Origin: Eubacteriales bacterium
GTDB lineage: Bacteria; Bacillota; Desulfotomaculia; Desulfotomaculales; Nap2-2B
Reading direction: 5' to 3'
NCBI GenBank assembly: GCA_041653135.1
Contig: JBAZGB010000003.1
Coordinates: 421-64,420 of the forward strand
DNA length: 64,000 nucleotides
Under the pieces are notes generated by a model. It ran no database searches. It was not told the origin of the DNA and saw nothing but the letters and a program-made list of their open reading frames with translations. Of this stretch, positions 1 through 55,032 are shown one piece after another. A program made the translations under genes and the position numbers. Each line of letters begins with the position of its first letter. The stretch's first letter is position 1.

Positions 1-191
1 ATCTTAAACTCAGCTCCCGACAAATCCGTAACATCGTTAACCTGAACAGGAACGTCAAACTCCTGGTTAAGGTTTACGTTTGCCGGTGCTGTTATTCCTA
101 TTGTGGCTGCGCTCGCCCAGGCGGGAATAGCCAGGCAAAGTATAATCAGCAATCCTAAAATGGAAAAAAGTAATGCTTTTCTCCTCAACAC
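1..191 (-). CDS. Secreted cohesin-domain protein, N-terminal part (runs off window)
   Basis: Not in the ORF track. AGGAGG (198-203) lies 6 nt before GTG at 191. Translation MLRRKALLFSILGLLIILCLAIPAWASA-ATIGITAPANVNLNQEFDVPVQVNDVTDLSGAEFK is a signal peptide plus a cohesin-like start (V..G..F.VPV.V..V.DL.GA.F). Lies directly downstream of two dockerin genes. Confidence 0.7.
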   Translation of the reverse strand, partial: MLRRKALLFSILGLLIILCLAIPAWASAATIGITAPANVNLNQEFDVPVQVNDVTDLSGAEFK

Positions 192-368
192 TAATGACCT
201 CCTTTTTCATAAAAGTCTTGCTTCATAAAGTTATTGCTTTATAGATCTTGCTTTTCAACAAGCCCTTTCCTTTATCTTTACGCACGCCCTCCTTTCAAGT
301 TAAGAGGTGTATCGTATACAACTGTTTTTCAACCGCTCATTTTTATCTCATGCGCTCCAAATCTCTTC

Positions 369-1586
369 TTACAGGCCCATGTTTTGGGCTACCCGTAGCA
401 GGTCAAAAATATCGACCTCCTCATCATTATTTACATCTGCTTTATTCGCTTCTGGATTGGTATTCGGATCCAGACCCATCCTGGCTGCCGCCCACAATAT
501 ATCAAAAATGTCTATTACGCCGTCGTCATCCATATCACCAAGGCGCAGAATCACGTCCGGGAGTTCGACAACTTCACCGTCGCCTATTGTTACCGGCCGG
601 ATTTCTTCCTTCCAGCTTCCGTCAGGCCGATCGAAAGATACATTGTAGCTGTCTGCAGACGGAGGACATACACTGTAACTGCCGTTAGAAAGTGAAACCG
701 CGCTGGCCATAATATTGTTGCCTTTCTTTACATTAACTACGGTTCCAGCGTGATCAGGTTCGGGGTCGTCAGCATAAACTTTCTCCAAAAAAACGTTTCC
801 TTTGATTATTGGGCCGCTGATTCCCATTTCTATCAAGATATCATTAAGTATTTCCTGTTCTTCATCCGTCAGTTGAATAAAGGCATTATGAAACAACTGA
901 CAGTCAAAACCAATATCTATCAAATCCTGTTCGGTAATATTGCTTACGTTTATAATATACTGTTCAACCAGGGCGTCAAATTGCGGGCACGAAATATTTC
1001 CGGCCTGGTCAATTTTAATTGTATTCAGCAGTTGCAAAAAGAACTCAATTCGCTCACATTCCCCCCAGTTCCAGGTTGAGTTCATCTCCAACCGAAAGCT
1101 TAAGGGAAGGGAATTCCGTAATGTTTCATATAACTCGGCCAGATAGGTAATATCGCGGTTTGATGGGGAAACGGCTTTGACAAACCCTTCATACCCGCCG
1201 ACGCCATCGCTCTGGTGAGTATTTACATAAATTTCAAATACCTGTGACTGAAGCAGCCCGGAATAGCTAAGACCAAACTTCGCTTCCAGCACAGTCTGCT
1301 GCTGCACGGTTAAAACAGGCTGGTTGCCGTTTATCCCTAAAAAAAGCGCCTGGTTTAAATCCTTCGATATATTTACAAGTGATTCAACTTCCTGGGCATT
1401 TAAAACAGCCAGTTTATCCCATAGAGGTGTTAAAGCCTGCACGCAGTCAATACTGTTCATCTCACTTTCTTCAGCCCGGACCGGCGGCGCACAAATAAAC
1501 AAAACGGAAATAATAAAGGCAAAAGCAAGCAGAGCCAATTTAAACCTCTGGAGAATGTCCTTCACTCTAGTACTCACTCCTTTCAT
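369..1586 (-). CDS. Secreted protein: unknown helical N-domain, carboxypeptidase-regulatory-like beta domain, C-terminal dockerin
   Basis: Signal peptide. Duplicated Ca-loop motif GDMDDDGVIDIFDIL...ADVNNDEEVDIFDLL at the C-terminus. Confidence 0.8.
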   Translation of the reverse strand: MKGVSTRVKDILQRFKLALLAFAFIISVLFICAPPVRAEESEMNSIDCVQALTPLWDKLAVLNAQEVESLVNISKDLNQALFLGINGNQPVLTVQQQTVLEAKFGLSYSGLLQSQVFEIYVNTHQSDGVGGYEGFVKAVSPSNRDITYLAELYETLRNSLPLSFRLEMNSTWNWGECERIEFFLQLLNTIKIDQAGNISCPQFDALVEQYIINVSNITEQDLIDIGFDCQLFHNAFIQLTDEEQEILNDILIEMGISGPIIKGNVFLEKVYADDPEPDHAGTVVNVKKGNNIMASAVSLSNGSYSVCPPSADSYNVSFDRPDGSWKEEIRPVTIGDGEVVELPDVILRLGDMDDDGVIDIFDILWAAARMGLDPNTNPEANKADVNNDEEVDIFDLLRVAQNMGL

Positions 1587-1653
1587 TAACCACTAAGCCT
1601 TAAGATTTCTTGTTTGAAGAAATTATTCACTTCTTAGTCTGTTCGAAACTCAT

Positions 1654-2523
1654 TTACAAGCCCATGTTTTGAGCTACCCGGAGCAGGTCAAAAATATCTA
1701 CATCCTCGTCCTTAATTATGTTCGCATACATCGCTTCCGGATCGGTATCCGGATCCAGCCCCATTCTGGCCGCTATCCACAGGAGATCAAAAATATCAAT
1801 TTCGCCGTCGTTATTCACATCGCCAAGGCGCAGAGTCACGTCCGGCAGTATGACATCACCACTTACTACGGTTACCGGCCTTTTTTCCTCCTTCCAGCTC
1901 GCGTCATCCCGGTCAAAGCATACATCGTAGCTGCCTGCGGACGGAGGAGATACACTGTAACTGCCGTCAGCAAGAGTAACCGTGCTGGCCACAATATTTT
2001 CACTTCCGCCTGTTTTTACATTAACTGCGACCCCGGCGAGACTAGGGTCGGGATCTGAAGACTGAGCCTTCTCCAACAAGACCTTCCCTTTGATTGCAGT
2101 CGGCGGCGGGATTTTAAGATCAACTTGTTCTACATCACCACTGTACCATTTAATAGTCACCGGAGTGCCGTAGTAATAAGTCTGTGCTGAGTAGAGGCAG
2201 CCGTTAACCTCAACCTTAAAAGTAACCGTTTTTCCCGCATCCGCGCTGTAACCGGTCACAGCAAGTTTTTTATGATCGTGGTCACCATAATAACCCCCGG
2301 TGAAATCAAATTCGGGGCTGCGCAGAGCGCCGTCAATATACGCCGTGACTATTCCCTCTTCTACCGTCTGCCCTTCAGTAGTCCATACACTGCCATAATA
2401 CTGGGCGGGCATTAGGGGAAGCGGATCATCGGCCGCGGCCGGGCCGGCCAAAGCTAAAAGGCAAAGAGCGGCGCTGATCAAGACCAGAATCCACTTTTGG
2501 AAAACTTTTGTTTGTCGGTTCAT
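1654..2523 (-). CDS. Secreted dockerin-domain protein
   Basis: AAGGAGGG RBS; signal peptide. GDVNNDGEIDIFDLL...ANIIKDEDVDIFDLL dockerin. C-terminal ~148 aa paralogous to 369..1586. Confidence 0.82.
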   Translation of the reverse strand: MNRQTKVFQKWILVLISAALCLLALAGPAAADDPLPLMPAQYYGSVWTTEGQTVEEGIVTAYIDGALRSPEFDFTGGYYGDHDHKKLAVTGYSADAGKTVTFKVEVNGCLYSAQTYYYGTPVTIKWYSGDVEQVDLKIPPPTAIKGKVLLEKAQSSDPDPSLAGVAVNVKTGGSENIVASTVTLADGSYSVSPPSAGSYDVCFDRDDASWKEEKRPVTVVSGDVILPDVTLRLGDVNNDGEIDIFDLLWIAARMGLDPDTDPEAMYANIIKDEDVDIFDLLRVAQNMGL

Positions 2524-2609
2524 TTCGAAGCCCTCCTTAAAATATTTTAAAGACCAGCCCTTTGCAACAACCCCCTGGATTTAAAAAACTATCCTTAGTT
2601 AAATAAAGA

Positions 2610-3917
2610 TCAAGGAACCGAAATTGCTTCCAGCAAACGTGCGATCATGGCCGCTATCTCTGCGCGGGTTACTTCTTTTTGCGGCCCGTAGGCGCCATCC
2701 GGGTAACCCTTTACAATACCTTTTTCGGCTACGATATTTACCGCCTCGCTTGCCCAAGCCGGGATTTGTTTCTGGTCGGCAAAACTTGCCTGGGGAGGTT
2801 TCTGGTCGCCAAGTTTTTGAACCAGCACCCGGCTTATAATCGCCGCCAGTTCAGCTCTGGTAAGCTGCTTTGCCGGTTGAAAAGTACTTTCCCCACCTGT
2901 TCCGATATACCCTTTCAGCAAACCTTCGTAAACAACCGCCGCGACAGAACCTTTAGCCCACTCCGGAACATCCGCCGCATCACTGAATATGGCCAGCTTC
3001 GCGTTGTTTCTGGCATCTATGCACGGGCTGCATCCTTCCATGCCGGGATCAACGGTTTCCAGTTCCAGCGCCCGGGCAATGATGGCGGAAAATTCTGCCC
3101 GGTTGATCATCTTATTCGGGCGGAAGGTTTTATCCTCATAGCCGCTGATTATCCCCTGCCCTACCAGTTTTTCAATAACCCCTGCAGCCCAGTGGCCCTG
3201 CAAATCGGTAAACTCAACAGCCTGTGCGATGGGGGCGGAAGAATCCTGGTATTTAAAAACAGCTTCCTCACTGTACAGGTTGTTTTGACATGCAACAGCT
3301 TTTACGGTGGTAGTTGTTTTAATCGTGAATTTTTCCTTGTATTCCTGTCGTGTGCCGCTCTGTTTCGGATCTGACCCGTCGGTGGTGTAATAAATAATTG
3401 CCCCCCCGGTAGGAGAAGACAAACTTATCTCCAGACTTCCGGTAAAACTCCCGGGCTCCGGCGCAGCCTCGGGCTTTTTGGGCGCCTGCTGTATGCCGCC
3501 GGTTCCACCGCCCGTCCCGCCGCCGCTAGTCGCTTGCGCCGGCACGTCGGCAGAAAGATTTACACTAAGATAGACACCCTGTTCATATTTGACTTCCGCA
3601 GGGTCAGACTGCGCAGGATATTCCGTTCCTCCAGCGGCTACTTTAAAAATAACCGTCTGGCCGAACACGCTCTGTTCACCTTCGAAACATGCGCTGAAGA
3701 CGCCTTTTTCTATGGTATCCTGAGCATACAACTTTCCTCCGATATAAACATTTACCACGCCTGTTTGGACCAATTCGCCGGTATTGTTCTTTACCGTTCC
3801 TTCGTAACAGCTCGGCACTACCGGCAAATCGGCGGCCAGAACCAACCCGCCCAGGCTCAAAGCGAAAACAAAGGTCAATAAAACTGCATATAAACGCTTC
3901 ATTTTAAATTGTCTCAC
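2610..3917 (-). CDS. SLH-domain surface protein with Fn3-like/CHB_HEX_C-type domain
   Basis: Signal peptide; G/T linker; IYYTTDGSDP motif; three SLH repeats (FTDLQGHWA, GYEDKTFRPNKMINRAEF, GYPDGAYGPQKEVTRAE). Confidence 0.88.
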   Translation of the reverse strand: MRQFKMKRLYAVLLTFVFALSLGGLVLAADLPVVPSCYEGTVKNNTGELVQTGVVNVYIGGKLYAQDTIEKGVFSACFEGEQSVFGQTVIFKVAAGGTEYPAQSDPAEVKYEQGVYLSVNLSADVPAQATSGGGTGGGTGGIQQAPKKPEAAPEPGSFTGSLEISLSSPTGGAIIYYTTDGSDPKQSGTRQEYKEKFTIKTTTTVKAVACQNNLYSEEAVFKYQDSSAPIAQAVEFTDLQGHWAAGVIEKLVGQGIISGYEDKTFRPNKMINRAEFSAIIARALELETVDPGMEGCSPCIDARNNAKLAIFSDAADVPEWAKGSVAAVVYEGLLKGYIGTGGESTFQPAKQLTRAELAAIISRVLVQKLGDQKPPQASFADQKQIPAWASEAVNIVAEKGIVKGYPDGAYGPQKEVTRAEIAAMIARLLEAISVP

Positions 3918-3973
3918 CCAGTCTGCCCTCCTTGAAATATTTAGGTAGAGTTTAAAAATGCTAAAATTATACT

Positions 3974-4996
3974 TTAAGACTCCGTCAGCGCTTTCCAGAA
4001 CCTTTCCAGTGTCACTGCCGCCTCAGCCCGCGTAACTTCTTTGAGCGGCTGGAAGGTACCGTCCGGGTAGCCTTTCAGGATACCCTTCTGGACAATTAAA
4101 TTTACCGCCTCCCCAGCCCAATCCGGGATCTGCTTCTGATCGCTGAAGCTTGCCGGAGCAACCGCCGGTGGTTGCTGGGCGCCGACCACCTGATTAAGCG
4201 CCCGGACTAAAATTGCCGCCAGCTCCGCTCTATTCAATGGCTTGTGCGGCCGGAAATAAACTTTTCCGTTCTCTTCCGGATAGCCCTTTAATATACCCGC
4301 GTATACAGACGCGGCGACAGAGCTTTGCGCCCAGGCGGGTATGTCTGCTGCGTCACTGATATTTTCCAGCACTTCCGGTTCTCCGGCGCCTAAAACCAGA
4401 ATACGCGCCATCATGGCAGAAAACTCTACGCGGGTAAGGAGGTTTTCCGGCCGGAAAGAATGATTCTCGTAACCCTTGAATAATCCCTGATCAATCGCCT
4501 GCTGGGCAGTGTCTTTTGCCCAATGCCCCTTTAAATCATCAAAGGCTGCCGGCAATGTGTCCTCAGTTACAACCGTCAGGTCTACCTGCTGCTTTGACTT
4601 GCTCTCCCAAATTACTTTAGCAAGACTCGTACGCGCAAGATACTCCCGCCCGTTAACCAAAACCTCGAATTTTACTTCTTTGCCGCTCAGGTCATCTTTA
4701 CTGTAAACAAGCAGCCGGCTTGTATAGGGGTCCCATGCCGGCACTCCATAGCACCCGTTGAAAAAAGGCAGTTTGCCGCAAAGTTTCCCATCAACAAAGG
4801 CTTTCACCTCGCCGGAAGCAACAGCTTGTCCCGCTTCGGTTTTAACCGTTCCGTAGTACAGGGCGGGAAAAGCCACCGGGGGCTGCGTGGAGGAATCCTG
4901 CTGGGCATATGCATTACCCTGTAAAAATAACAATGTTCCTAAAAAGAAAATGAACATCCAAAACTTTTGACCCAGGTTCTTATATTTTTTCTGCAT
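3974..4996 (-). CDS. SLH-domain surface protein
   Basis: Likely start ATG at 4996 (MQKKYK); signal peptide; three SLH repeats (FDDLKGHWA, GYENHSFRPENLLTRVEF, GYPDGTFQPLKEVTRAE). Confidence 0.88.
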   Translation of the reverse strand: MQKKYKNLGQKFWMFIFFLGTLLFLQGNAYAQQDSSTQPPVAFPALYYGTVKTEAGQAVASGEVKAFVDGKLCGKLPFFNGCYGVPAWDPYTSRLLVYSKDDLSGKEVKFEVLVNGREYLARTSLAKVIWESKSKQQVDLTVVTEDTLPAAFDDLKGHWAKDTAQQAIDQGLFKGYENHSFRPENLLTRVEFSAMMARILVLGAGEPEVLENISDAADIPAWAQSSVAASVYAGILKGYPEENGKVYFRPHKPLNRAELAAILVRALNQVVGAQQPPAVAPASFSDQKQIPDWAGEAVNLIVQKGILKGYPDGTFQPLKEVTRAEAAVTLERFWKALTES

Positions 4997-5066
4997 CAAT
5001 CTTTCGCCTTTAAATATTGCTTTCAAAAAATATATTTCCCTTCAGCTTCTTTATTCAAGAAAATAA

Positions 5067-5105
5067 AGCTTATCTGGTGCGGCGGGTCCGCCGCACCAGA
5101 CAGCT
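5067..5105 (-). terminator. Intrinsic terminator after the 955-aa gene
   Basis: Perfect inverted repeat tctggtgcggcgg/ccgccgcaccaga followed by TTTATTTT on the minus strand. Confidence 0.8.
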
Positions 5106-5177
5106 GTCTATCAATTATCATCCTGCATTATCTGCAAGATAACAAATCAGACGTGCAAATAATACTACTGTGGTGTT

Positions 5178-8045
5178 TTATGGGTTTTGAGTCTCTTCTT
5201 CGTACAGCAAGTCATCAAACATTGACTGGCCAACTTCGGCAGCCAGCGTCTGAGTCTTGGTCATGTATACCCAGTAGCCGTCGCCGTTGAACACCAGGTA
5301 CAGCGGGTCGAGCGCCCAGGCTTCAAGCGTACCCTGGGAAACATCGGCCGCCGTAAACCCGGCCAGGTTGGCCATCCTGTTGGGATCGCCGTCGATATTT
5401 ACGTCCTTTATTCCTGTGTTCGGATCGAGATCAACGACGATATCCAGTCCGTGGCCGCCCGGGTTATAGGTCTTCTTGCAGGCTTCGCAGGTGGTTCCGA
5501 GCATCTTGCCCAAGAACTCAGGCTGGTAAAGCTTGTCGCAAGGATAGCCTTCACAATTCGGACTGTCGCAATCCGGTACTTTGCAATTGCCGATAATATC
5601 AATCTCTATCGCCGGCGGCAAGGTCATCTCGCTCGGCATGGCTACTCCGACCAGGTTCCAGCCCTGCACCACAGTTCTGGTGGGCGGGATATCTTCACCG
5701 GGGTTGGCAACCCGGTTGAAGACGTATTTTGCCACATAGCAGTTCGGAGCTCCTTGTGTTGCTCTTTGCTTCGTCTTTACGTAGTAGGCGTAAAGCGGAT
5801 CAAGTTCCTCATCGGGGGCAAGGCTATCCCACTGATAGTCTTTATAGGTTAGAATATCGGCAAAGCTGCTCGCCGGCATCAGGGAATCCATGCCGCCGCT
5901 GCCCACCAGTTCCTGCGGAGTGGAAAGGACCTGCCAGGTCTCCGCATTCAGCACACGCTTTAAATCTACAGGATCGGCAAAGGGGCCAACTGCAACTGTG
6001 TTGGTTAGAATGACTTTTCCGGTTGTCTTGCCGACCAGCTTCGCCTGCACATAGACTACACTGCAAACACAGCTTGCGGAAGGATAGACATAGAAGTGTG
6101 ACTTCACGGTGCAGTATGGGTGAGTGTACTTATCCCAGCCATGGCACACTTTGCAAAGCAGCTCGCTGTGGTCTTCATTATAAATGTCGCCGCGGCCATC
6201 ATAGGCGCCTTTAAAGTTGAAGGTAGTATCAAGCGCCGTATCCCAGGTTGCGCAGCTGGGCGGGCAGAATTCCTTGGGGCTGGTCCCGGCCCAATTTGTA
6301 TCGTCTCCATCATCCGATCCACGCAGAGAAACAATAACGTCATAATTCTCAGTGGCATGGATATCGTTTCCTGCATCATCCTTTAGCCAGATTGCCGCAG
6401 ACAGCGGCCAACCGGCAACGGGGGCATTCTCGACAGAACCGAGTTCAATATCCTTGACCACTTTTACGGTAATATCCAACTGGGCCTGCGTTGCCTCATT
6501 GACAAATGCCTTGCATCTGGCAACAGACCTGTTAAGGTTGATTATGGAACGGCCTTCGATTGTCATTTCACCCAGTTTTTTCGGGTAGAATGTTACGCAA
6601 ATCCCCGTTTGGCCTTGCGGAATCCAAATGTGGGTGATTTCGTTGCCAGCAGCGTCTTTAAAGATACCGGTAACATTTTTGTTCGTATCGTAAGCGATAA
6701 GGTCAACCTTTAAACCGCCTGCATCCCTTACCGTTGTCAGGTTGCCGAACTTATCATAGACATCGATGCAGAAGTTGTAAGGTTTGTCAAGGGGAATCGG
6801 GCTCTCTTTCGGACAAGACCTCGGTCCGATGCAACTGGGCACACCAGGAGAAAGCGTGATGGTCCGGGGAATCGCTTCCAGCCAGGCGTGGGGCATTGTT
6901 TCAATGCACCCTGGAACGACAAAAGGACTATATAAAATGTGTGTCCCGCCAGAACTGGTTGCCCCGGCAAAGTCCTCTAAGGCCTCGGCAGCCATAAGCT
7001 GGCAATCCACAGTAAAGGGCGCAATATACTCAATCTCAGGATCTGCATTGCAGTCCTGTACTTCGATTGTACGCGCCCGGATGGTATAATCCAGGCCGTA
7101 ATCCTCACAGGCCGGCAGCTTTAGCTGGGCTGTGAAGATGGTTCTGTCTCCCAACTGCCTCGTATGCGCGACCACGGGGCAGATCGGCACGCCTGTGCAC
7201 GGTTTATAGTTCGCGGAACAATTTTCAATTATAGTTTCCCCATCTTCTATTACGAATGATCCTGGTCCACCGGCGTAAGGATCCTGCGCCGTCAGGCCTT
7301 TTTTATCCACGAGGTCAATAAGTACCGGCCAGGTGTCAAACGGCCAGGGTTTGTTGCAGGTACCCCAAACCTCTCCGCTGACCTCGATTGTAGAGCCTTT
7401 AGTGTAAGGAGCAGCGGGTAAATCAAGCGTTATTCTCTCTACAGTGCGCACTACTCTCAGCGCCATGCAGGATGAGACGCCACCGGTAAAGCACGGATGG
7501 CGCAGCGTGATGCAATAGCTTCCATCCAGGCAGGTGTTCTTCACCCTTAAGCCCTCGATTTGGAAATAATTGACTGTACCTATTTGCGGCAGGTTTTGTT
7601 TTTGAATAACAAAGGTAGCCGTGTGACTTACATTATCAATCACCGGAATTGTCTGAAGAATAGTACCAGTCATAGGATCTGAGCCACTGGTCCAGACCCG
7701 TATAGCAACAGTTCTCCCAATAGCCGGAGAAAGATCAAACTGTGTAGCATTCGGGTCGGAGATTTCCGGGAAATCAACCACTATCGGCTGATCTGCAAAT
7801 ACTCCCAGGTCAATATCGCCAAATAAGCCGGAATAGATCCCGTAATCATATGTGTGACTGCCCTTGACGACGTTCATATTCATGCCTGTATACGGGTTTA
7901 GTTGAGGATTCCCGTCAGGACCCAAAGCAATAATCCCTGTGTAATCAACCGGCGCCGCCAGTGATACTCCGGCAAACATAAAGCAACACAGAGCAACTAC
8001 AGCTAAAACAATGCTAAGTTTGCCCCATTTAGATATATGTGACAT
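5178..8045 (-). CDS. Large secreted Cys-rich surface (S-layer-like) protein with one CxxCH motif
   Basis: AAGGAGGG RBS; signal peptide; ~31 Cys in the mature chain by manual count; CKVCH at 6141-6155; two C-terminal W/GWNL...YYV/YWV repeats; own terminator and long leader. Function is an inference. Confidence 0.65.
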   Translation of the reverse strand: MSHISKWGKLSIVLAVVALCCFMFAGVSLAAPVDYTGIIALGPDGNPQLNPYTGMNMNVVKGSHTYDYGIYSGLFGDIDLGVFADQPIVVDFPEISDPNATQFDLSPAIGRTVAIRVWTSGSDPMTGTILQTIPVIDNVSHTATFVIQKQNLPQIGTVNYFQIEGLRVKNTCLDGSYCITLRHPCFTGGVSSCMALRVVRTVERITLDLPAAPYTKGSTIEVSGEVWGTCNKPWPFDTWPVLIDLVDKKGLTAQDPYAGGPGSFVIEDGETIIENCSANYKPCTGVPICPVVAHTRQLGDRTIFTAQLKLPACEDYGLDYTIRARTIEVQDCNADPEIEYIAPFTVDCQLMAAEALEDFAGATSSGGTHILYSPFVVPGCIETMPHAWLEAIPRTITLSPGVPSCIGPRSCPKESPIPLDKPYNFCIDVYDKFGNLTTVRDAGGLKVDLIAYDTNKNVTGIFKDAAGNEITHIWIPQGQTGICVTFYPKKLGEMTIEGRSIINLNRSVARCKAFVNEATQAQLDITVKVVKDIELGSVENAPVAGWPLSAAIWLKDDAGNDIHATENYDVIVSLRGSDDGDDTNWAGTSPKEFCPPSCATWDTALDTTFNFKGAYDGRGDIYNEDHSELLCKVCHGWDKYTHPYCTVKSHFYVYPSASCVCSVVYVQAKLVGKTTGKVILTNTVAVGPFADPVDLKRVLNAETWQVLSTPQELVGSGGMDSLMPASSFADILTYKDYQWDSLAPDEELDPLYAYYVKTKQRATQGAPNCYVAKYVFNRVANPGEDIPPTRTVVQGWNLVGVAMPSEMTLPPAIEIDIIGNCKVPDCDSPNCEGYPCDKLYQPEFLGKMLGTTCEACKKTYNPGGHGLDIVVDLDPNTGIKDVNIDGDPNRMANLAGFTAADVSQGTLEAWALDPLYLVFNGDGYWVYMTKTQTLAAEVGQSMFDDLLYEEETQNP

Positions 8046-8542: not shown

Positions 8543-9256
8543 TCACCCGCCGCAATGAGTAGTTTTTCCGGCGCTGTCTTCCATCGGCGCCTTAATGGCC
8601 CTGTCCGCCAGCTTTGTACCGCGCCAGCCGACATCAAACCCACCTGTCATGTTTTTGACAGGCAGTCCCTGCGCTCCCAAAACACCGGCGACCAGGCCGG
8701 AGGAACTGCCGTCAGCGCAATAAACAACAATTTCATTCAGGCCTCCCCGGGCCGCGTGTTCGGCCAACAAACGCTTCAGCTCGGCAATGTTTTGTTTTTC
8801 AGCCATGTTTTCCGCCGGGGCAATCCAGACGGCGCCCGGAACATGGGCGGGATCGTAAACAGCTTTATTCCTTACGTCAACAACCAGGGGGTCGTTACCA
8901 ATCTGATCGCCGGTATTATGGCCGGTCCTGTAATCGGCCAGGGAATTGTCGTTGTCGTCATCAAGAATCTTTTTGAGTCCGGCAGGACTGATCAGGTTGT
9001 CCGCCTTGCCCAGATAAAGCTCGCCCCGCTGGTCATCAATAGTTACCGTCCCGTTTTTTTCGTCCCAGGCCACATGTGCGCCAAGCTGCTCGCTGACAAA
9101 ACGGATCGGAACATATATTCGGCCGCTTTTTAGGATGACTGAAACCCCTTCTCCGGCCTCAACTCCGCTAATTAACAGCCTGATTGCCTGCCCTGCCTGT
9201 GCCCATCCACAACCAAGCAAAAATATACAAATCAGCAGAACCGCTATCTTTTTCAA
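8543..9256 (-). CDS. Secreted copper-amine-oxidase-N-terminal (stalk) domain plus rhodanese protein; candidate C-terminal CxxU selenoprotein (would extend to 8534)
   Basis: YVPIRFVSEQLGAHVAWD stalk motif; LVVDVR...HVPGA and VVYCADGSSS rhodanese motifs; ends H-C-G-G-TGA-S-H-TAA. Confidence 0.8.
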   Translation of the reverse strand: MKKIAVLLICIFLLGCGWAQAGQAIRLLISGVEAGEGVSVILKSGRIYVPIRFVSEQLGAHVAWDEKNGTVTIDDQRGELYLGKADNLISPAGLKKILDDDNDNSLADYRTGHNTGDQIGNDPLVVDVRNKAVYDPAHVPGAVWIAPAENMAEKQNIAELKRLLAEHAARGGLNEIVVYCADGSSSGLVAGVLGAQGLPVKNMTGGFDVGWRGTKLADRAIKAPMEDSAGKTTHCGG

Positions 9257-9961: not shown

Positions 9962-10453
9962 TTACTTTTTCAGAGAAACGCAGACCGGACAATAACCATT
10001 ATCGACTATGACTGTCGACCTTGGCTTATCCCAAACCACTTTGCCGCCCAAAGACTCCGCAGTCGCTTTCAGGGGCACGTAAAGCCTCCCCCTGACGATT
10101 TTTGCGCGAACAGCCAAATTAATCCGCTTACCGTTTTTAAATGCTGTTGCGCTGCCGGGGGTGAATTGAACGCTGTCTTGCTTTCTTGTTACAGTTGCGG
10201 TTCTGGCAGCGGTGTTCCATTTTACTGCAGCCCCCAGATTTTCTGCGATCGCTCTGCAGGAAACCAAAGTATGTCCATTCTCGACCAACATATCGGCGCT
10301 GTTAATACTTTCCCCATTAACCAGCACACGAATCTGGCCGGCTATCCCGGGAGTCAGAAAGAAAATGCCTTGGAAAGAAACCAGGACTACCGTCAATACC
10401 AGGAATACCTTTAATTGATCTAAAAACTTTTGCCTGTTGAAAGCGTCACTCAT
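9962..10453 (-). CDS. Secreted copper-amine-oxidase-N-terminal (stalk) domain protein with C-terminal CPVC
   Basis: Signal/anchor helix; two stalk repeats (AIAENLGAAVKWN, YVPLKATAESLGGKVVWD); YCPVC at 9980-9991. Confidence 0.8.
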   Translation of the reverse strand: MSDAFNRQKFLDQLKVFLVLTVVLVSFQGIFFLTPGIAGQIRVLVNGESINSADMLVENGHTLVSCRAIAENLGAAVKWNTAARTATVTRKQDSVQFTPGSATAFKNGKRINLAVRAKIVRGRLYVPLKATAESLGGKVVWDKPRSTVIVDNGYCPVCVSLKK

Positions 10454-35912: not shown

Positions 35913-37322
35913 TTACATTAAAACGTATTTTACAAACCAGTTTTTAGCCGCATATAGTTTCAAAACCATTTTAATTAAAGGAGATTTTAGTTCCTTTTGT
36001 AATCTCCTGTATTCCTCGCGTGAATTGATTAAATCCTGCTGAAGAAAACGGAGGGAATGCCCCAAATCCTCTTCGTTCCTTAGAGCTTCCTGCAAACTGT
36101 CGTTTAAGGCATCTATTTCCTCCTGCAACACAGCTTCTTTCTTGCCGGCGCCTTCCTTTGTACGTTCAAGTTTCTGGCGCAATTCAATTATTTCTGTCTG
36201 CAGCTCGGCTACTTTTGTTGTATGACGTTCTTTTAATTCAGCCAGCCGGGTTTTATACTCCCTTTCCTTCTCCTGGTACTGCTGCAGGCGTGCCTGTAAT
36301 GCCTCAATGTTTTCCTGAGCCTGAGCCAGCGCATCTTTATACTGATATTTCTCAGCTTCTTTTTCACGCGCTTTTTTTACCCAGAGCCGGCATTGGTACA
36401 AGATGCTGCTTGCTTTTGCTTCAAGGTTGTTTATATGCCCCCTGTATCTGAAAATTTCTTTCTTGCGCAGGTTAAGCAGCAGGTCTTTTTCCGCCATTTG
36501 AGTGACCATGTGTTCATGCCGGCCGATTTCTTCAGCCCTTAAAGCCAGCGCTGCAGCCGCTTCCTGATGCGCCAGGGCGATTTCATCCAATCTTTCTTTT
36601 AAAACAGATTCCCTCTTCTGCATTTGATCCCTGTATCGGGACCAGGATGCTTTTTGCCTGATTAAGACATTGATAAATTTTTTCATCAAGCTCTCATAAA
36701 CCATGCGTAAAGTTGGATTATAAGACCAGACGCCATCTGCAATTTTTTGAAAATAGGGGAATTTGTGGAGCACGTCTTCCACGTCTTTTAATCTTGTTTG
36801 ACGCCAGACAGATACAACTTCGAATATCTGCCGGGCTGACAGGCCGGCGGGATAAAGCTTCAATGACTTGATGACCATGTCTTTTAAAGAGTATAAAGCA
36901 GATTCGACTTCCCATTCCGTCAACCCCCAGTGACCGTTCTTCAGTTGAATGAAGCGGCCGTCGGAAATAAGACTGGTCTCCTCGGCAATGATTCTTTTGA
37001 AATTCTTATTCTCGTTTTTGCCGTTGCCTCCCCGCATAATTTCTTTTAAGTTCAGCGGCTGCTGCCTCTTTAAAAGAAGTGCGTAAAAGGCGTCATTTTC
37101 CCGCCTGCCTTCAAGATTCAAACGCCAGGAATTGTTTTGATCCCGAAAGAAACAAGAATGTTGGCGCAAGCACAGGATTATTTTATCTTCAGCTTTTGCC
37201 GGCTCATAATCCTGTATCATTTTTTGCTGAACATAAGGGGTTAACTCAGCCACGTTCAGGGTTTCGAAAAAAAACAGTGTTTTTTTAAGAACATCATTAA
37301 GAGAGTAAAGTTCCCCCGCCAT
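35913..37322 (-). CDS. Hypothetical protein: tandem winged-HTH-like repeats plus long coiled coil
   Basis: Three repeats ending F...(G)W.L (NNSWRL, GHWGL, GVWSY); C-terminal ~240 aa rich in E/K/Q/L heptads. Confidence 0.7.
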   Translation of the reverse strand: MAGELYSLNDVLKKTLFFFETLNVAELTPYVQQKMIQDYEPAKAEDKIILCLRQHSCFFRDQNNSWRLNLEGRRENDAFYALLLKRQQPLNLKEIMRGGNGKNENKNFKRIIAEETSLISDGRFIQLKNGHWGLTEWEVESALYSLKDMVIKSLKLYPAGLSARQIFEVVSVWRQTRLKDVEDVLHKFPYFQKIADGVWSYNPTLRMVYESLMKKFINVLIRQKASWSRYRDQMQKRESVLKERLDEIALAHQEAAAALALRAEEIGRHEHMVTQMAEKDLLLNLRKKEIFRYRGHINNLEAKASSILYQCRLWVKKAREKEAEKYQYKDALAQAQENIEALQARLQQYQEKEREYKTRLAELKERHTTKVAELQTEIIELRQKLERTKEGAGKKEAVLQEEIDALNDSLQEALRNEEDLGHSLRFLQQDLINSREEYRRLQKELKSPLIKMVLKLYAAKNWFVKYVLM

Positions 37323-47170: not shown

Positions 47171-49099
47171 TTATAAACCGTTGGCTGTTGTTTTTGGCTT
47201 GATCAAAAAACGCTTATCACCCACTCTTTTGGTCACCTTGATCCTGTCAAAGTATTCCAGCAAGGGCAGCGCGTATTTCCTGGAAATATTAAAAAGAGTT
47301 TTAATTTCTCCGATCGAAATTTCATTATTTTTTTCCAAATACCCGGTCAAGAGTTTTTTTGCATCTTCAATGGCAGCAGCGTGAAAATAAAGTCCTTCCG
47401 CCACTTTGACCAGCGTCCCCTGCCGCAAAAAAAGCTGCAGGACTTCCTGAGACTGTAATTCGCCAATACCTTCCCCAGCGGAAACGCTTTCCCAATCCGG
47501 CGGTTGAAAGCCGTTTTTATAAAAGATATCTTCTACTTTCTTGATAATCTCCTGCTGGCCGTCTTCAAGTTTAGGCTGAAAACCTTTTAATGCTATTGTG
47601 TTCGAACCCGGACTTAAAATATTTTCTGCTCCCATTATCTTAAGCAGCGACTGAAGCTGTCTTGTGTTAAATTGGGGAAAAAGCCTGGAACGCAGTTCCT
47701 CACGGGGGAAACCTTCCCTTAAAGGATACTGGTGATGGTATTTCTTCAGAAGTTCGGTTAATTTTTCAACCCATTGCTTGTAAATCTCCCGGGAAATAAA
47801 AAAATGGTCATGATCCGCTGTCAGGACATACACTTTATTTTCCCCGCTCAGTTCTTCAAGCGCCCGGTCAGTTTCTTCCTCTTTAATCCCGGTTGACCGG
47901 GATATATCCGATTTGCTCCTGATTGTTTTCTGGCTTTTTAAATAGCTTTCCACCTGTTCAGCAGGGAGGCCAAGTTCACGAGTAACCAATGCTTCAATTA
48001 TTTCTTCCCGCATTCGTTTATGTTTCCTGGATGCCGAATCGACTACGACACCTCCTCCCAGAGTATGAACAGGAGAATATGACCGGAACACGAAACGGTC
48101 CCCTTTTATAGCCGCAACCGGTTCCTCAAGCAGAAATTGCGCATAAGCGGTTTCTCCGGGTAAAAGTTTATCCCTGTCCAACAGGATAACCCTGCCGAGA
48201 ATTTCAGCCGTACCAAGATAAAAACGAAGACGGGTCCGGTTTTCCAACTCCTTTTGCACATTTGCAAGCAAAGAAATCCGGGCATCCAGACGGTTGGCAG
48301 ACCTTAAAAACCCCGGCTTTGCCAAAACGCTTCCCCTTTGAGCCTGTTCCACACCTACACCGGCAATATTTACAGCCACCCTCTGCCCGGCCATGGCTTC
48401 TTTTACTTTTTCTCCGTGAACCTGCAGGGAACGCACCCTGGCAACCAATCCCTGAGGCATAATCTCCAGGTTGTCTCCGGTATGAATAACTCCGCTCCAG
48501 AGCGTGCCCGTCACCACTGTGCCAAATCCCGTTACGGAAAACGCCCTGTCTATAGGCAGCCGGGCCTGCCCTGCATTATCTTTTCCTTCCACCGGAACTT
48601 CGTCGATTTTTTTCAGCAGCTCTTCCAGTCCCTGACCTGTAACCGCAGACACCTCCACAACAGGGGATTCTTTTAAAGGGGTGTCTTTCAGGAAATCATT
48701 AACATCTTCCCGGACCAATTTTAAAAATTCTTCGTCAACCAGGTCAACTTTCGTCAAAGCAACTATTCCCCGGTTGATCTGCAATAAACGGACAATATCC
48801 ATGTGCTCCCGTGTTTGGGGCATAACTCCCTCATCTGCGGCTATAACCAGTAAAACAAGATCAATTCCGGCTACCCCGGCCAACATGTTTTTAATAAACC
48901 GCTCGTGACCGGGAACATCGACAATGCCTGCCCGGCGTCCGCTGGGAAGCCGGCAAAAAGCGAATCCCAGCTCGATGGAGATCCCTCTTTCCTTCTCCAT
49001 CTTTAACCTGTCAGTGTCAATCCCCGTCAGAGCTTTAATCAGAGCTGTTTTCCCGTGATCTACATGGCCTGCCGTACCAATGATAATATTGGTCATCAC
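47171..49099 (-). CDS. selB: Selenocysteine-specific elongation factor
   Basis: GTAGHVDHGKT, DVPGHERF, TKVD; winged-helix tail ending SRKYALPLLEYFD..KVTKRVGDKR. Confidence 0.97.
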   Translation of the reverse strand: MMTNIIIGTAGHVDHGKTALIKALTGIDTDRLKMEKERGISIELGFAFCRLPSGRRAGIVDVPGHERFIKNMLAGVAGIDLVLLVIAADEGVMPQTREHMDIVRLLQINRGIVALTKVDLVDEEFLKLVREDVNDFLKDTPLKESPVVEVSAVTGQGLEELLKKIDEVPVEGKDNAGQARLPIDRAFSVTGFGTVVTGTLWSGVIHTGDNLEIMPQGLVARVRSLQVHGEKVKEAMAGQRVAVNIAGVGVEQAQRGSVLAKPGFLRSANRLDARISLLANVQKELENRTRLRFYLGTAEILGRVILLDRDKLLPGETAYAQFLLEEPVAAIKGDRFVFRSYSPVHTLGGGVVVDSASRKHKRMREEIIEALVTRELGLPAEQVESYLKSQKTIRSKSDISRSTGIKEEETDRALEELSGENKVYVLTADHDHFFISREIYKQWVEKLTELLKKYHHQYPLREGFPREELRSRLFPQFNTRQLQSLLKIMGAENILSPGSNTIALKGFQPKLEDGQQEIIKKVEDIFYKNGFQPPDWESVSAGEGIGELQSQEVLQLFLRQGTLVKVAEGLYFHAAAIEDAKKLLTGYLEKNNEISIGEIKTLFNISRKYALPLLEYFDRIKVTKRVGDKRFLIKPKTTANGL

Positions 49100-49100
49100 T

Positions 49101-50570
49101 TCACCCCTGGAATAATTCCTTTTTCTCCTCTTTTAACAAAACACCTGACAATGCATCCAGGATCATTTTTTCTTCTCCGTTTTGGATGGTTCTTAAATCT
49201 AAAAGAAAGAGGTCTTCCCGTACCCTGCCCAAAACAGCGGGTTCATGATATCTTAAAAGCTGGCTGAACCGTTCCATGCTCAGTTTAAATGGTTTAACAG
49301 CCACCGCAAAGGAAGGCAGTTCCGCCGTCGGCATAGCCCCGCCTCCTACCCGGGAAACAGAGCTTCTGACAGTTATTTCCGCTTCTCTCTGTACAGCTTC
49401 TCTCAAGCTGCAAGCCATATCTTCCGCCCTCAACCGGATATCTTCCAAATCCCCAGTAATCATCCGCAACGTTGGAATATCTTCTAGGGCCTGCTCCGGA
49501 TTCAGGTATGACCTTAAGGTGGCTTCCAGCGCCGCCAGAGTTAGTTTGTCTATCCTCAACGCACGGGCCAGGGGGTTTTTATGCATTTCCTCAATAATTT
49601 CCTTTTTGCCGGCAACAATCCCCGCCTGTGGACCGCCAAGCATTTTATCCCCGGAAAAGGTCACCACACTGATACCGGCGCCCAGCACCTGTTGGACGGT
49701 AGGCTCAGCCGGAAGATTGAAAAACCCGAGATCCGCCAGAACACCGCTGCCCAGATCGCTCATTACCGGCAGGTTAAACTCCCGTCCCAGCTTGACAAGT
49801 TCAGAAACACTTGCCTGTCTGGTAAAACCTATAATATGGTAATTGCTTGTATGGACATGCAAAATCAACGCCGTTCTCTCGGTAATCGCCGCCCGGTAAT
49901 CTTCAACATAGGTCTTGTTGGTTGTGCCCACCTCAACAAGGGTACAGCCGCTCTGTTTCATAATCTCGGGAATGCGGAAAGAACCGCCTATTTCTACGAG
50001 TTGGCCTCTTGATACAATTACTTCCTTTCCCCGGGCCAATGTGCTCAAAGCCAAAAGGACAGCCGCCGCGTTGTTATTTACGGCCAGAAAGGACTCAGCC
50101 CCGGTTAACCTGAAAAGAATGTCTTGAACGGCGGCGTGCCGTGAACCTCTCCTGCCCGTATCAAGATCAAATTCAAGATTGATGTAACTTGACGCAGCTA
50201 AAAAGACAGCCTGACAGGCGGCCGTGCTTAATAAAGAACGGCCAAGGTTTGTATGCAGGATAACTCCGGTTCCATTGATTACTTTTTTTACATTTGATCC
50301 TGCAATCCTTTTAACCGTTTCCGCAGTTTCCAGCACGACAAGACCTTTTAGCTGTTCCCTGGAAAAACTTCTTCCTGATCCCTCGTTATTTTTTAATTCG
50401 TCGCGAATGCGGTCCAATGCGCTGCGTATTATTTCAAGAACAATTTCACGAGGATAAAAACTTAATAGTTCACTGATTTGGGAAGACTGCAGAATTTCAT
50501 TTACAGCAGGCAACTTGTGCAAGATCTTTTCTCCGCCGTTTACATCCAAATTTGTTTTGCCCCCAATCAT
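49101..50570 (-). CDS. selA: L-seryl-tRNA(Sec) selenium transferase
   Basis: INGTGVILHTNLGR, NNNAAAV, SRGQLVEIGGSFR, FSGDKMLGGPQAG. Confidence 0.97.
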   Translation of the reverse strand: MIGGKTNLDVNGGEKILHKLPAVNEILQSSQISELLSFYPREIVLEIIRSALDRIRDELKNNEGSGRSFSREQLKGLVVLETAETVKRIAGSNVKKVINGTGVILHTNLGRSLLSTAACQAVFLAASSYINLEFDLDTGRRGSRHAAVQDILFRLTGAESFLAVNNNAAAVLLALSTLARGKEVIVSRGQLVEIGGSFRIPEIMKQSGCTLVEVGTTNKTYVEDYRAAITERTALILHVHTSNYHIIGFTRQASVSELVKLGREFNLPVMSDLGSGVLADLGFFNLPAEPTVQQVLGAGISVVTFSGDKMLGGPQAGIVAGKKEIIEEMHKNPLARALRIDKLTLAALEATLRSYLNPEQALEDIPTLRMITGDLEDIRLRAEDMACSLREAVQREAEITVRSSVSRVGGGAMPTAELPSFAVAVKPFKLSMERFSQLLRYHEPAVLGRVREDLFLLDLRTIQNGEEKMILDALSGVLLKEEKKELFQG

Positions 50571-52770: not shown

Positions 52771-55032
52771 TTACTTTTGTTCCTGCAGAACAAGATAGAC
52801 TATTGGCGGAGCTCCAAAGATCATGGTTGTTGCAGCAGCCACTATTCCCGCATCGTTGAAAATTAGAGCCACAATGCTTGCCGTAACAACACCGACAAAT
52901 CCCTTGTATAAATCGGGATGCCTTTTCCGTATCGTGGCCATAACACCCAGCGGTCTGTAGAACAAGAGAGCAAGGCTTCCCAGGCTGGCAATAAAAATCC
53001 GGGTCCAAATTGTATATCTGATCAATTTCAGGTTCATTTCAGTTTTACGTACGATTATGTTTTTTATCTCCTGCCAGCCTCCGGATAAAATCAAGGAAGC
53101 ATTCCGTCCGAAGTGCGACTGAAGCTCGGCGGGCCTGAACAGATCAATTGCCGGTATTACAGCCACTAACCCGATTATGATGATGACAAGATAAATGACA
53201 GTGCGCAGCTTGAACTTTACGTTACAGAGCAGCAAAAAGGTAGTCGCCAGTGCGGCAACCGAGACGATAGCCCCTCCCATTTTAGAGCCCAGGGCTGGTG
53301 AGGCCAATATATAGACAGTGATCAGAAAAATAATTCCCGTCAAAGCCAGCAGGGTTCTCCGGTAACGCTCAAACTTGCTCATTAAGGTTGTGCAGCCGAT
53401 AATTAAAGAACCCATTAACACTCCCATGTATTCGTTTCCTATTCCGTAGAAGCGTGCGCCGGCTATCGGATCATAGCTCATTATCGAAGTCTTCTGAAGG
53501 GGCGCCCCGATGGCTGTGTCCAGAATCAACAATCCTGCAGTGGCCAGGCTTAGAAAAATAAACGAACCAAGGTTGTGGCGGCGCTCAAACCACCAGGCCA
53601 GACAGGTAATCCAGGCCGTAAGCAGGAACAGTTCCAAAGTTAAAACAAAAAATGAGGGCTGGGGTAAAAGAGACAGCAGCAAATAAACCAGCGGGACAGC
53701 CATAACGGATAATAAAAATGGTTGAAGCAGCCGGGCAGCCTTTTTATGAATGAGGATAAAATACAGGCTGACCAGCAACAGGCCCAGTTGGCAAATACAG
53801 TATCCCTTTTGAAAGATGTTCCGTGCATTATACGTCAGAGTCAGTTGTTTATTCATATCGACCAGCTTGCTGAGCTGGTTTTCTGATTCAACCCAGAGCA
53901 TATTCTGGCCGCTCATCCATTCGGGCTTTCTCAAATTGAGAAAACCCAGGATTGTCGGGGCCAGATCGGTATTCATTATAATTCCCTGTCTTTTGGTTGT
54001 CGGTGAGAACAGAAAGCCTTCCCGCACCCCTGCTCCAACCGCTAAAATATTAGAAAGGTATTCATTCTGATTTCCGGTGGTGGTTTTTCCCGGCGTAGGG
54101 GAAATAATCAGCAGGAGGTCCCTGTCCGGATTCAGCCGGCCCATTACTCTTCCGATAAACTGATCAATCCTTTGCATTGTCCGCTTACGTTCAGCGGCCC
54201 AGACCGGATCGGACACATAATTACGAAACTCTTCCAGCCTGGACAGATCGCCTGTTTCTATTACTGTAAGAGCCGTATCGCCGGGTAAACGCTCCATCTC
54301 CTGAAGAACCCTGGCGTAATTTGTACGAAACCCGCCGGGAAAACGGTCGTCCATCTTTTCAAGCAGAGAAGCGCTGACATCACCATTGTCCACCAGCCCG
54401 TATCTGTCCATTGCAATGGACAGAATCTCCCGGCGGCGGCCGATAATTGTATCTGCATTACCAAAAACAGCTGTTTTCAAGCCCGCTTCGTGCAGACGGT
54501 CGCCTAAAGCGCCCGGTACGGCAGGATAAGGAAGTTCGCTGTTAAGCTGCCCAAACCTGGTAATATCGAGCTGGACAACCGCCGAAGAGGGAACTTTCCT
54601 GCCCAAACGCCGGTAGTATTCAAACCCTGCGGGCCCGGAATCCTGCTCTTCATCTGCATTCAAACCCATTGTATACGTCCCTGTTGCTATGATATGTGAA
54701 CCTGCCCCAATTGTGGCATAAGTATTTTCCGAAAGAAGGTTATTACCGGCGGTATTACAGTTCATCAGGCTGATCGCGCCATTTTGTATGATTTTGTGAA
54801 AATTAGCAAGCAACGGATCGCTAAAGTCTTCTAAAACCATCCGGTCGACAATTACAATGACAACCTTGTTTTCTTCCGAAGGGCTGGATGCAAAGGGGTT
54901 GGCTGCAGCATTTTTTACGCCTGGACTTACGTTTTGCATCGCCGTACCCGGCCAACCCAAGGCAGGAAAACCCGTCAGCAGGATAATAAAAATCAATAGG
55001 ATAACAACACTGTTCAGTTTACTCTTCTTCAT
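52771..55032 (-). CDS. Membrane protein with alkaline-phosphatase-superfamily-like extracellular domain and ~10 C-terminal TMs
   Basis: VVIVIVDRM, YATIGAG, GARFYGIGNEY, FNDAGI motifs; adjacent to a GT4 gene. Confidence 0.65.
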   Translation of the reverse strand: MKKSKLNSVVILLIFIILLTGFPALGWPGTAMQNVSPGVKNAAANPFASSPSEENKVVIVIVDRMVLEDFSDPLLANFHKIIQNGAISLMNCNTAGNNLLSENTYATIGAGSHIIATGTYTMGLNADEEQDSGPAGFEYYRRLGRKVPSSAVVQLDITRFGQLNSELPYPAVPGALGDRLHEAGLKTAVFGNADTIIGRRREILSIAMDRYGLVDNGDVSASLLEKMDDRFPGGFRTNYARVLQEMERLPGDTALTVIETGDLSRLEEFRNYVSDPVWAAERKRTMQRIDQFIGRVMGRLNPDRDLLLIISPTPGKTTTGNQNEYLSNILAVGAGVREGFLFSPTTKRQGIIMNTDLAPTILGFLNLRKPEWMSGQNMLWVESENQLSKLVDMNKQLTLTYNARNIFQKGYCICQLGLLLVSLYFILIHKKAARLLQPFLLSVMAVPLVYLLLSLLPQPSFFVLTLELFLLTAWITCLAWWFERRHNLGSFIFLSLATAGLLILDTAIGAPLQKTSIMSYDPIAGARFYGIGNEYMGVLMGSLIIGCTTLMSKFERYRRTLLALTGIIFLITVYILASPALGSKMGGAIVSVAALATTFLLLCNVKFKLRTVIYLVIIIIGLVAVIPAIDLFRPAELQSHFGRNASLILSGGWQEIKNIIVRKTEMNLKLIRYTIWTRIFIASLGSLALLFYRPLGVMATIRKRHPDLYKGFVGVVTASIVALIFNDAGIVAAATTMIFGAPPIVYLVLQEQK

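Follow-up and report, generated by a model that had tools for sequence, protein, structure and literature searches.

The DNA analysed here is a 64,000-nucleotide stretch of contig JBAZGB010000003.1 (the window) from an Eubacteriales bacterium of the order Desulfotomaculales, and its beginning is likely to be the first part of a conserved, non-cellulosomal cluster for cell-envelope display that is organized around a single cohesin, in a spore-forming anaerobe of the Pelotomaculum/Peptococcaceae SCADC type. This reading is carried by the domain content of the genes, by the homology of their cohesin and X-module-dockerin (X-Doc) units to type II pairs, by a gene order that is retained in relatives, and by dockerins that are uniform throughout a lineage. 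The most distinctive trait of the predicted proteins is that the same head domains are both fixed to SLH repeats and borne on dockerins. The genes, and the candidate signals between them, are as follows.

5178..8045 (-): G0, the cluster's conserved first gene, encoding a secreted, Cys-rich protein of 955 aa (33 Cys)
5071..5102 (-): terminator-like hairpin between G0 and g1, a consensus match with a 14-bp stem (9 GC pairs) and a T-rich tail
5029..5058 (-): sigma-70-like promoter candidate directly upstream of g1, a consensus match (TTGAAT, 18 nt, TATATT)
3974..5026 (-): g1, signal peptide, domain A (nt 4565-4882) and 3 SLH repeats (nt 3977-4543)
2610..3917 (-): g2, signal peptide, domain A (nt 3543-3827), CHB_HEX_C_1 Ig-like domain (nt 3255-3461) and 3 SLH repeats (nt 2616-3215)
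1654..2523 (-): g3, signal peptide, domain A (nt 2107-2424), X-module-like beta-sandwich (nt 1828-2100) and dockerin (nt 1657-1827)
369..1586 (-): g4, signal peptide, domain B (nt 816-1469), X-module-like beta-sandwich (nt 543-812) and dockerin (nt 372-542)
1..191 (-): g5, the 5' end of a single-cohesin gene (63 codons), covering the signal peptide and the first cohesin strands

In the arrangement that we propose, every product of the cluster would be secreted. The g1 and g2 proteins would be bound non-covalently to the cell wall through their triple SLH repeats, each displaying a domain A head, while the g3 protein (domain A) and the g4 protein (the predicted helical domain B) would have no wall anchor and would end in an X-Doc dyad. 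These dyads are expected to dock, in a Ca2+-dependent manner, onto the lone g5 cohesin, which would be presented on a stalk of FN3-like 102-aa repeats (1-2 in close relatives, about 3-4 here) followed by a 200-aa C-terminal domain. An SLH-anchored domain B protein with FN3-like repeats would be encoded next, and then further dockerin proteins that include a TIG-M10 metalloprotease. The net result would be the same heads, plus a few enzymes, placed on the wall either directly through SLH repeats or interchangeably through the cohesin socket. We infer the binding itself, its Ca2+ dependence and the hold of the cohesin protein at the surface.

The original prediction described five co-oriented, closely packed secreted-protein genes (SLH, SLH, dockerin, dockerin, cohesin), and this agrees with what was found: g1-g5 all lie on the minus strand, the gaps between them are 56-177 nt, and Pfam recognizes SLH, Dockerin_1 and Cohesin. 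As read from the translations, each of the five N-termini has a signal-peptide-like hydrophobic segment that closes in an Ala-rich cleavage motif. The likelier start of g1 is the ATG at 4996, which is preceded by AAAGG and gives 340 aa, the length that is also called in an identical public contig (L001, below); g5 starts with the GTG at 191, with AAGGAGG 6 nt upstream. A search of the spacer between g4 and g5 (177 nt) for structured elements was negative (z = -0.8). The extent proposed for the cluster, 1-5026, was right for the genes but not for its limits, as the 955-aa G0 lies upstream and SLH and dockerin genes would continue downstream, off the contig.

Attachment to the wall is predicted for g1 and g2. 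Pfam SLH matches three stretches in each (E=5e-37 for g1 and E=2e-40 for g2), so that both have the triple repeat by which wall-bound SLH proteins are recognized, and the two SLH regions share 49% identity; g2 has in addition a CHB_HEX_C_1 domain (Pfam, E=3e-15). The ligand of SLH domains is the pyruvylated secondary cell-wall polymer, which depends on CsaB; a CsaB-type domain did not turn up in the scan of window ORFs, which passed over several small ones. N-terminal to these modules is domain A, about 100 aa long and common to g1, g2 and g3 (34% identity and E=3e-13 between g1 and g3; E=6e-10 between g2 and g3). The second head, domain B, comprises the N-terminal 220 aa of g4 and is predicted to be all-alpha. 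It has no sequence match in Pfam, NCBIfam or the Protein Data Bank (PDB), and the AlphaFold2 model of g4 is unreliable (mean predicted local distance difference test score, pLDDT, of 44, from a 3-sequence alignment), which leaves domain B without a fold assignment. Domain B is also related to the N-terminus of the SLH protein encoded downstream of the cohesin in a close relative, L002 (27% identity, E=5e-19), and thus both heads are found in SLH-bearing and in dockerin-bearing proteins.

The C-terminal X-Doc units of g3 and g4, about 147 aa each, are 67% identical. Dockerins consist of two tandem 12-residue EF-hand-like loops (D/N at positions 1, 3, 5, 9 and 12), each followed by a helix, and this is what both units contain: the putative Ca2+ loops are DMDDDGVIDIFD ... 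DVNNDEEVDIFD in g4 and DVNNDGEIDIFD ... NIIKDEDVDIFD in g3, the last being degenerate at positions 1 and 3. The g4 dockerin scores 27.7 bits against Pfam Dockerin_1 (PF00404), which exceeds the cut-off of 22.9 bits, and the g3 orthologues P0004-P0006 carry PF00404 as well. The observation that D-I-F-D occurs in both repeats of both dockerins was borne out, as the motif occupies loop positions 9-12 in 4/4 loops and its Ile-Phe pair (IF) occupies positions 10-11. With an alignment of 6 sequences, AlphaFold2 models domain A of g3 confidently as a beta-sandwich (pLDDT about 90) and the X module as a second beta-sandwich (about 83); three dockerin helices are predicted at low confidence in the models of both g3 and g4.

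Comparisons of structure and of sequence place these units with the X-Doc dyads of type II complexes. A Foldseek search with the g3 C-terminal unit returned the X-Doc chains 5g5d_B, 2b59_B and 4u3s_B, with a target-normalised template modelling (TM) score of 0.47-0.48 and a root-mean-square deviation of 4.4-4.8 A over about 122 columns for the first two, whereas the g3 beta-sandwiches returned generic Ig-like, pilin and CNA-B folds. By sequence, positions 21-145 of a profile made from 8 X-Doc units align with residues 53-177 of 4u3s_B (Acetivibrio cellulolyticus ScaA) at E=6.5e-12. The same profile matches 2b59_B (Clostridium thermocellum CipA; 3e-8) and 5k39_B, with the alignment spanning X module and dockerin, and reaches isolated type I dockerins at 6e-6 or worse. 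An Ig-like X module directly before a dockerin, with homology to known units, is therefore present in both proteins.

The g5 product was predicted to be cohesin-like from the 191 nt at the edge of the window, and the extended sequence upholds this. L001, a contig in a public groundwater metagenome (SRR18595300), matches window positions 1-6911 at 100% identity and extends g5 to 175 aa. Against Pfam Cohesin (PF00963, cut-off 24.1 bits) this product scores 48.8 bits (E=1e-12) over profile positions 10-137 of 139; the first 63 aa of the sequence scanned fall inside the window. A database copy of the same protein, P0001, is 202 aa long, lies on a 73,728-bp contig and continues into "ATSINTTSATLNGNITNTGGENCDQRKFQ"; an exact-protein look-up of P0001 found no matching record. 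A profile of six orthologous cohesins has as its best PDB match the type II cohesin of A. cellulolyticus ScaB, 3l8q (E=3.6e-11, with a range to 5e-8 for ScaB), and matches 20 more solved cohesins; the type I cohesins of CipC score about 3e-4. The cohesin and its X-dockerins are thus best described as a type II-like pair, a provisional typing by score ranking. An exhaustive HMMER search with P0001 is dominated by its last 40 residues, which belong to an FN3-like repeat, and gave few close relatives of the cohesin (P0011 and P0012). A metagenome scan with P0001 likewise gave FN3-like-repeat matches only and zero new cohesin loci.

The repeat that interferes with these searches also accounts for the end of the contig.

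Beyond window position 1 (L001:7216-7245 and L002:2945-3511): 306-bp (102-aa) FN3-like repeat after the cohesin

L001 stops 525 nt inside g5. The same sample has a 336-bp contig whose two ends each match the final 30 nt of L001. Its depth is 25, as compared to 7.3 for L001 (3.4x), which implies that it is a collapsed 306-bp tandem repeat of about 3-4 copies. Assemblies would consequently break after the cohesin, and the contig of the window ends there. In the cohesin gene of L002 two copies of the repeat lie head to tail with 95% nt identity, and more diverged copies occur in the next gene. The number of repeats in the cohesin protein varies from 1 (L003/L004/L006) through 2 (L002/L005) to about 3-4 in the window's sample.

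Contigs on which the downstream region is complete were reached through homologues of g3 and g4. When species-representative genomes were scanned, g4 as the query had no matches; a g3 alignment matched five genomes, those of Sporotomaculum syntrophicum FB, Pelotomaculum sp. UBA1371, Pelotomaculum sp. DTU098, Firmicutes bacterium UBA5766 and Peptococcaceae bacterium SCADC1_2_3. Gene order was determined with custom hidden Markov models for each module, run against all ORFs of the relatives' loci, together with Pfam. The conserved order begins with G0 (about 900-1000 aa), a domain A protein with SLH repeats, and a domain A protein with CHB_HEX_C and SLH repeats. These are followed by domain A with X-Doc, domain B with X-Doc, and a cohesin with FN3-like repeats (or Big_5) and a conserved 200-aa C-terminal domain; then come domain B with FN3-like repeats, Big_5 and SLH repeats, and more dockerin proteins. 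The synteny G0, SLH, SLH, X-Doc, X-Doc, cohesin, SLH is found in L002, L003/L004 and L012, and variants of it in L007, L014 and L015. Between the window and SCADC, protein identity is 70-78% for G0, g1, g2 and g4 and 56% for g3 and the cohesin.

The closest relative is L002, at 92% nt identity to the window. Its cohesin protein (575 aa) combines a single cohesin with two FN3-like repeats and the C-terminal domain and lacks an anchor, and the next gene, which starts 19 nt after the cohesin gene, has its own signal peptide and SLH repeats at its end. In L007-L010 the cohesin is part of a fusion: a cohesin and one FN3-like repeat are followed by Big_5 and SLH within a single 570-aa protein (L007:3710-5422). 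The cohesin module of these loci has diverged, which identifies a distinct gene and not a mis-assembly, and the fusion ties the cohesin to wall anchoring. The L007 fusion gene adjoins a DDE transposase, in a locus that has no g4 homologue. The cohesin protein of Pelotomaculum UBA1371 has just 257 aa and a weakly dockerin-like tail (17.7 bits, under the cut-off). S. syntrophicum FB (NZ_LSRS01000002) encodes a 441-aa protein that is composed of domain A, an FN3-like repeat, a cohesin and a dockerin (L015:14442-15767); the dockerin scores 34.9 bits and the cohesin, which is absent from the whole-protein scan, 54.9 bits when its segment is scanned alone. Having both socket and plug, this protein could be self-polymerising.

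Dockerins vary between lineages and not within them. Those of the window, L001 and L002 (three genes) are IF/IF throughout, those of L003-L010 and L012 (SCADC-type loci and UBA5766, with up to four genes per locus) are IL/IL throughout, and the pair in Pelotomaculum UBA1371 is LQ/IL. A residue pair that is uniform per genome but differs across lineages fits one shared partner per genome. The proposal of a single shared cohesin partner is therefore compatible with the data, there being one cohesin per complete locus and one residue pair per lineage. Since the dockerins of one genome share contact residues in both helices, they would compete for the same single socket. Their near-identical repeats, a trait shared with the type II pairs, fit a dual binding mode, and the dockerins probably bind in either of two orientations. 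Because the modules resemble the type II class, the logic of recognition positions, which comes from type I, is merely a guide here.

Several observations weigh against this interpretation. The g3 dockerin scores 21.5 bits against Dockerin_1, slightly under the cut-off, its second loop is degenerate, and the dockerin region of the g3 model is of low confidence (three C-terminal helices with pLDDT below 50). The cohesin protein of the window's lineage has no recognizable anchor, and its C-terminal 200 aa match nothing in Pfam, so that its retention at the surface is an assumption. For the window strain, the downstream half of the cluster is deduced from L002, as assemblies break in the 306-bp repeat. 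The operon structure is based solely on spacing and on consensus promoter and terminator matches, and among the RNA-seq runs searched there were none with the locus.

In an alternative reading, the dockerin-like tails are Ca2+-stabilised EF-hand-like modules that have no cohesin partner, the cohesin-like neighbour is coincidental or has another ligand, and the genes encode unrelated S-layer-associated proteins. The sub-threshold g3 dockerin is in keeping with this, as is the existence of many non-cellulosomal dockerin-like modules without a known partner (PMC9012536). We nevertheless regard it as improbable. In all lineages examined the genes for cohesin and X-Doc are neighbours, and in S. syntrophicum a cohesin and a dockerin are fused in one protein. 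The dockerins of a lineage switch together (IF versus IL) as expected under selection by one common partner, and the cohesin and X-Doc correspond to the two partners of a single solved complex family, 4u3s.

The type II homology raises a different concern, namely that the cluster attaches an ordinary cellulosome to the cell, its X-Doc and cohesin tethering a polysaccharide-degrading complex encoded elsewhere in the genome. The modules here are indeed nearest to the type II cohesin and X-Doc pairs that anchor cellulosomes to SLH proteins. The original prediction had found no recognizable glycoside-hydrolase domain, and this holds on a wider scale: Pfam detects none in g1-g5, in the other window ORFs scanned (most of those with at least 200 aa) or at the loci of relatives. 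Carbohydrate-active enzyme (CAZyme) domains, which in the full cohesin gene would indicate an ordinary cellulosome, were looked for and are absent from that gene in relatives at 92% and 79% nt identity. Neither a glycoside hydrolase, carbohydrate esterase or polysaccharide lyase nor a carbohydrate-binding module occurs in the 64-kb window or, for five lineages, in the surroundings of the cluster (up to 20 kb). No locus has a second cohesin (one each in L002, L003, L005, L007, L012 and L014), and the rest of the window has no further cohesin or dockerin. At the locus level, then, the features that define a cellulosome, a multi-cohesin scaffoldin and dockerin-bearing CAZymes with carbohydrate-binding modules, are missing. 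The X-Doc units are carried by small non-enzymatic heads and a protease, not by a scaffoldin.

The relatives point the same way. Pelotomaculum and Sporotomaculum are syntrophs. The cluster's relatives are syntrophic degraders of fatty acids, aromatics or alkanes, and Peptococcaceae SCADC was described from methanogenic alkane-degrading cultures (PMC4161757). From these relatives and from the content of the locus we infer that the host is non-cellulolytic, as had been proposed, and a cellulosome anchor appears very improbable. The idea of a modular surface scaffold has to be divided: the surface-display modules are there, but a multivalent scaffold is not, since the cohesin protein has a single cohesin.

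The type II anchoring pairs of cellulosomes (A. cellulolyticus ScaB-ScaA, 4u3s/4wi0; C. thermocellum SdbA/OlpB-CipA, 2b59, 3kcp and 4fl4) have in common with the cluster an Ig-like X module and a two-repeat dockerin; the window cohesin is closest to type II in sequence, and the L007 cohesin, on an SLH-anchored protein, resembles SdbA. In contrast to those pairs, the X-Doc here is found on several small cargo proteins and not on a multi-cohesin primary scaffoldin, the loci have no plant cell-wall-degrading enzymes, the contact pair is hydrophobic (IF or IL), and the cohesin protein of the window's lineage lacks SLH repeats and ends in a 200-aa domain of no known family. The C. thermocellum proteins OlpA and OlpC are single-cohesin SLH proteins that provide monovalent wall display through type I-like cohesins, whose ligands are the dockerins of enzymes. 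The cluster is like them in having one cohesin per protein, individually displayed dockerin proteins and SLH attachment within the system, but its modules are type II-like and its cargo is mostly non-enzymatic.

Non-cellulosomal cohesin-dockerin modules are already known, and are said to have been surveyed by Peer et al. in 2009. In C. perfringens, cohesin and dockerin modules form glycosidase complexes (PDB 2ozn/2jnk). Such modules also occur in the anaerobic methanotrophic (ANME) archaea (PMC9012536). The cluster shares with these cases the lack of a multi-cohesin scaffoldin and an organism that is not known for cellulose degradation, and the syntrophic lifestyle of its hosts resembles that of ANME. 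It differs in being bacterial, SLH-linked and tightly syntenic, with an X-Doc dyad, and in having its heads duplicated on SLH-anchored and dockerin-borne proteins. A full-text literature search for cohesin or dockerin with Peptococcaceae or Pelotomaculum found no description of the cluster.

TIG-Peptidase_M10-(X)-Dockerin proteins are encoded downstream of the cluster in L003 (13882-16407) and L012 (17540-19738), and the other dockerin proteins of relatives are CHB_HEX_C-X-Doc, TIG-Doc and, in L007, Lactamase_B-Doc; a Peptidase_C14-containing protein adjoins the cluster in L003. The system might accordingly serve chiefly to position extracellular hydrolases (the M10 metalloprotease, a metallo-beta-lactamase-fold enzyme and a caspase-like peptidase), as an analogue of the C. 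perfringens complexes with protein as the substrate and with the window proteins as accessories. We consider this unlikely, although somewhat less so than the absence of a cohesin partner. A catalytic domain is absent from all four of the window's cargo and anchor proteins, the M10 copy of the closest relative (L002:7228-8865) ends within the X module and lacks a dockerin, and the candidate enzyme genes are not visible in the window strain. The non-enzymatic cargo of the window points to a structural or adhesive role, and a proteolytic one is conceivable in view of the M10 protease that relatives conserve. The purpose of the display cluster is probably adhesion or elaboration of the surface layer, possibly with proteolysis, and not polysaccharide degradation.

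The G0 protein could contribute to such a layer. A G0 homologue heads the cluster in relatives, with 73% identity over the alignment in L003/L004 and 28-33% in L012, L014 and L015, and G0 is syntenic in five lineages even though a hairpin and a promoter-like site separate it from g1. It has no match in Pfam, NCBIfam or the PDB. A multihaem cytochrome was considered for this Cys-rich protein and rejected, as it has a single CxxCH motif that is not conserved. G0 could be the main surface-layer component, contacting the domain A proteins.

Outside the cluster, the window carries the chromosomal housekeeping genes of a spore-former, with ftsH, tilS, spoIIE, spoIID, mfd, selA/selB, IMPDH, gltX and envelope-polysaccharide genes. 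A plasmid origin was rejected, there being no PLSDB match and a chromosomal context (ftsH, tilS, spoIIE, mfd). Between the cluster and ftsH are genes for two secreted proteins with domains like the N-terminal one of copper amine oxidase (8543-9256 and 9962-10453, both on the minus strand), one of which is fused to a rhodanese domain. The selB and selA genes occupy 47171-50570 on the minus strand; ARAGORN detects no tRNA gene in the 64-kb window, and hence no adjacent tRNA-Sec. At E<=1e-5, Pfam matches nothing in three sizeable ORFs at 35913-37322, 52771-55032 and 62031-63029 (469, 753 and 332 aa), also on the minus strand, and the 469-aa and 753-aa ORFs sit among the envelope-polysaccharide genes (Bac_transf, GT4 and Wzy_C-TPR).

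Non-cellulosomal cohesin-dockerin pairs are common in genomes and few have a worked-out function, and the cluster offers a compact, conserved and testable case. Useful traits are its one cohesin, its small set of X-dockerin cargo and, in one lineage, a natural fusion of cohesin and SLH; the switch between IF and IL lineages could serve for testing specificity, and a cultured relative exists in S. syntrophicum FB. The module pair could also give designer protein-assembly toolkits an orthogonal specificity. For the organisms themselves, the host Peptococcaceae rely on close contact with partners, which makes a role in cell-cell or cell-substrate attachment a plausible proposal. More speculatively, and with only a small chance of being right in full, the two-route display may be specific to syntrophic Desulfotomaculia, with A and B heads either fixed by SLH repeats or plugged into a cohesin on a stalk of variable length. 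Together with G0, it would then form an outer layer by which the cells, within methanogenic hydrocarbon-degrading consortia, attach to hydrophobic substrates or to their methanogen partners.

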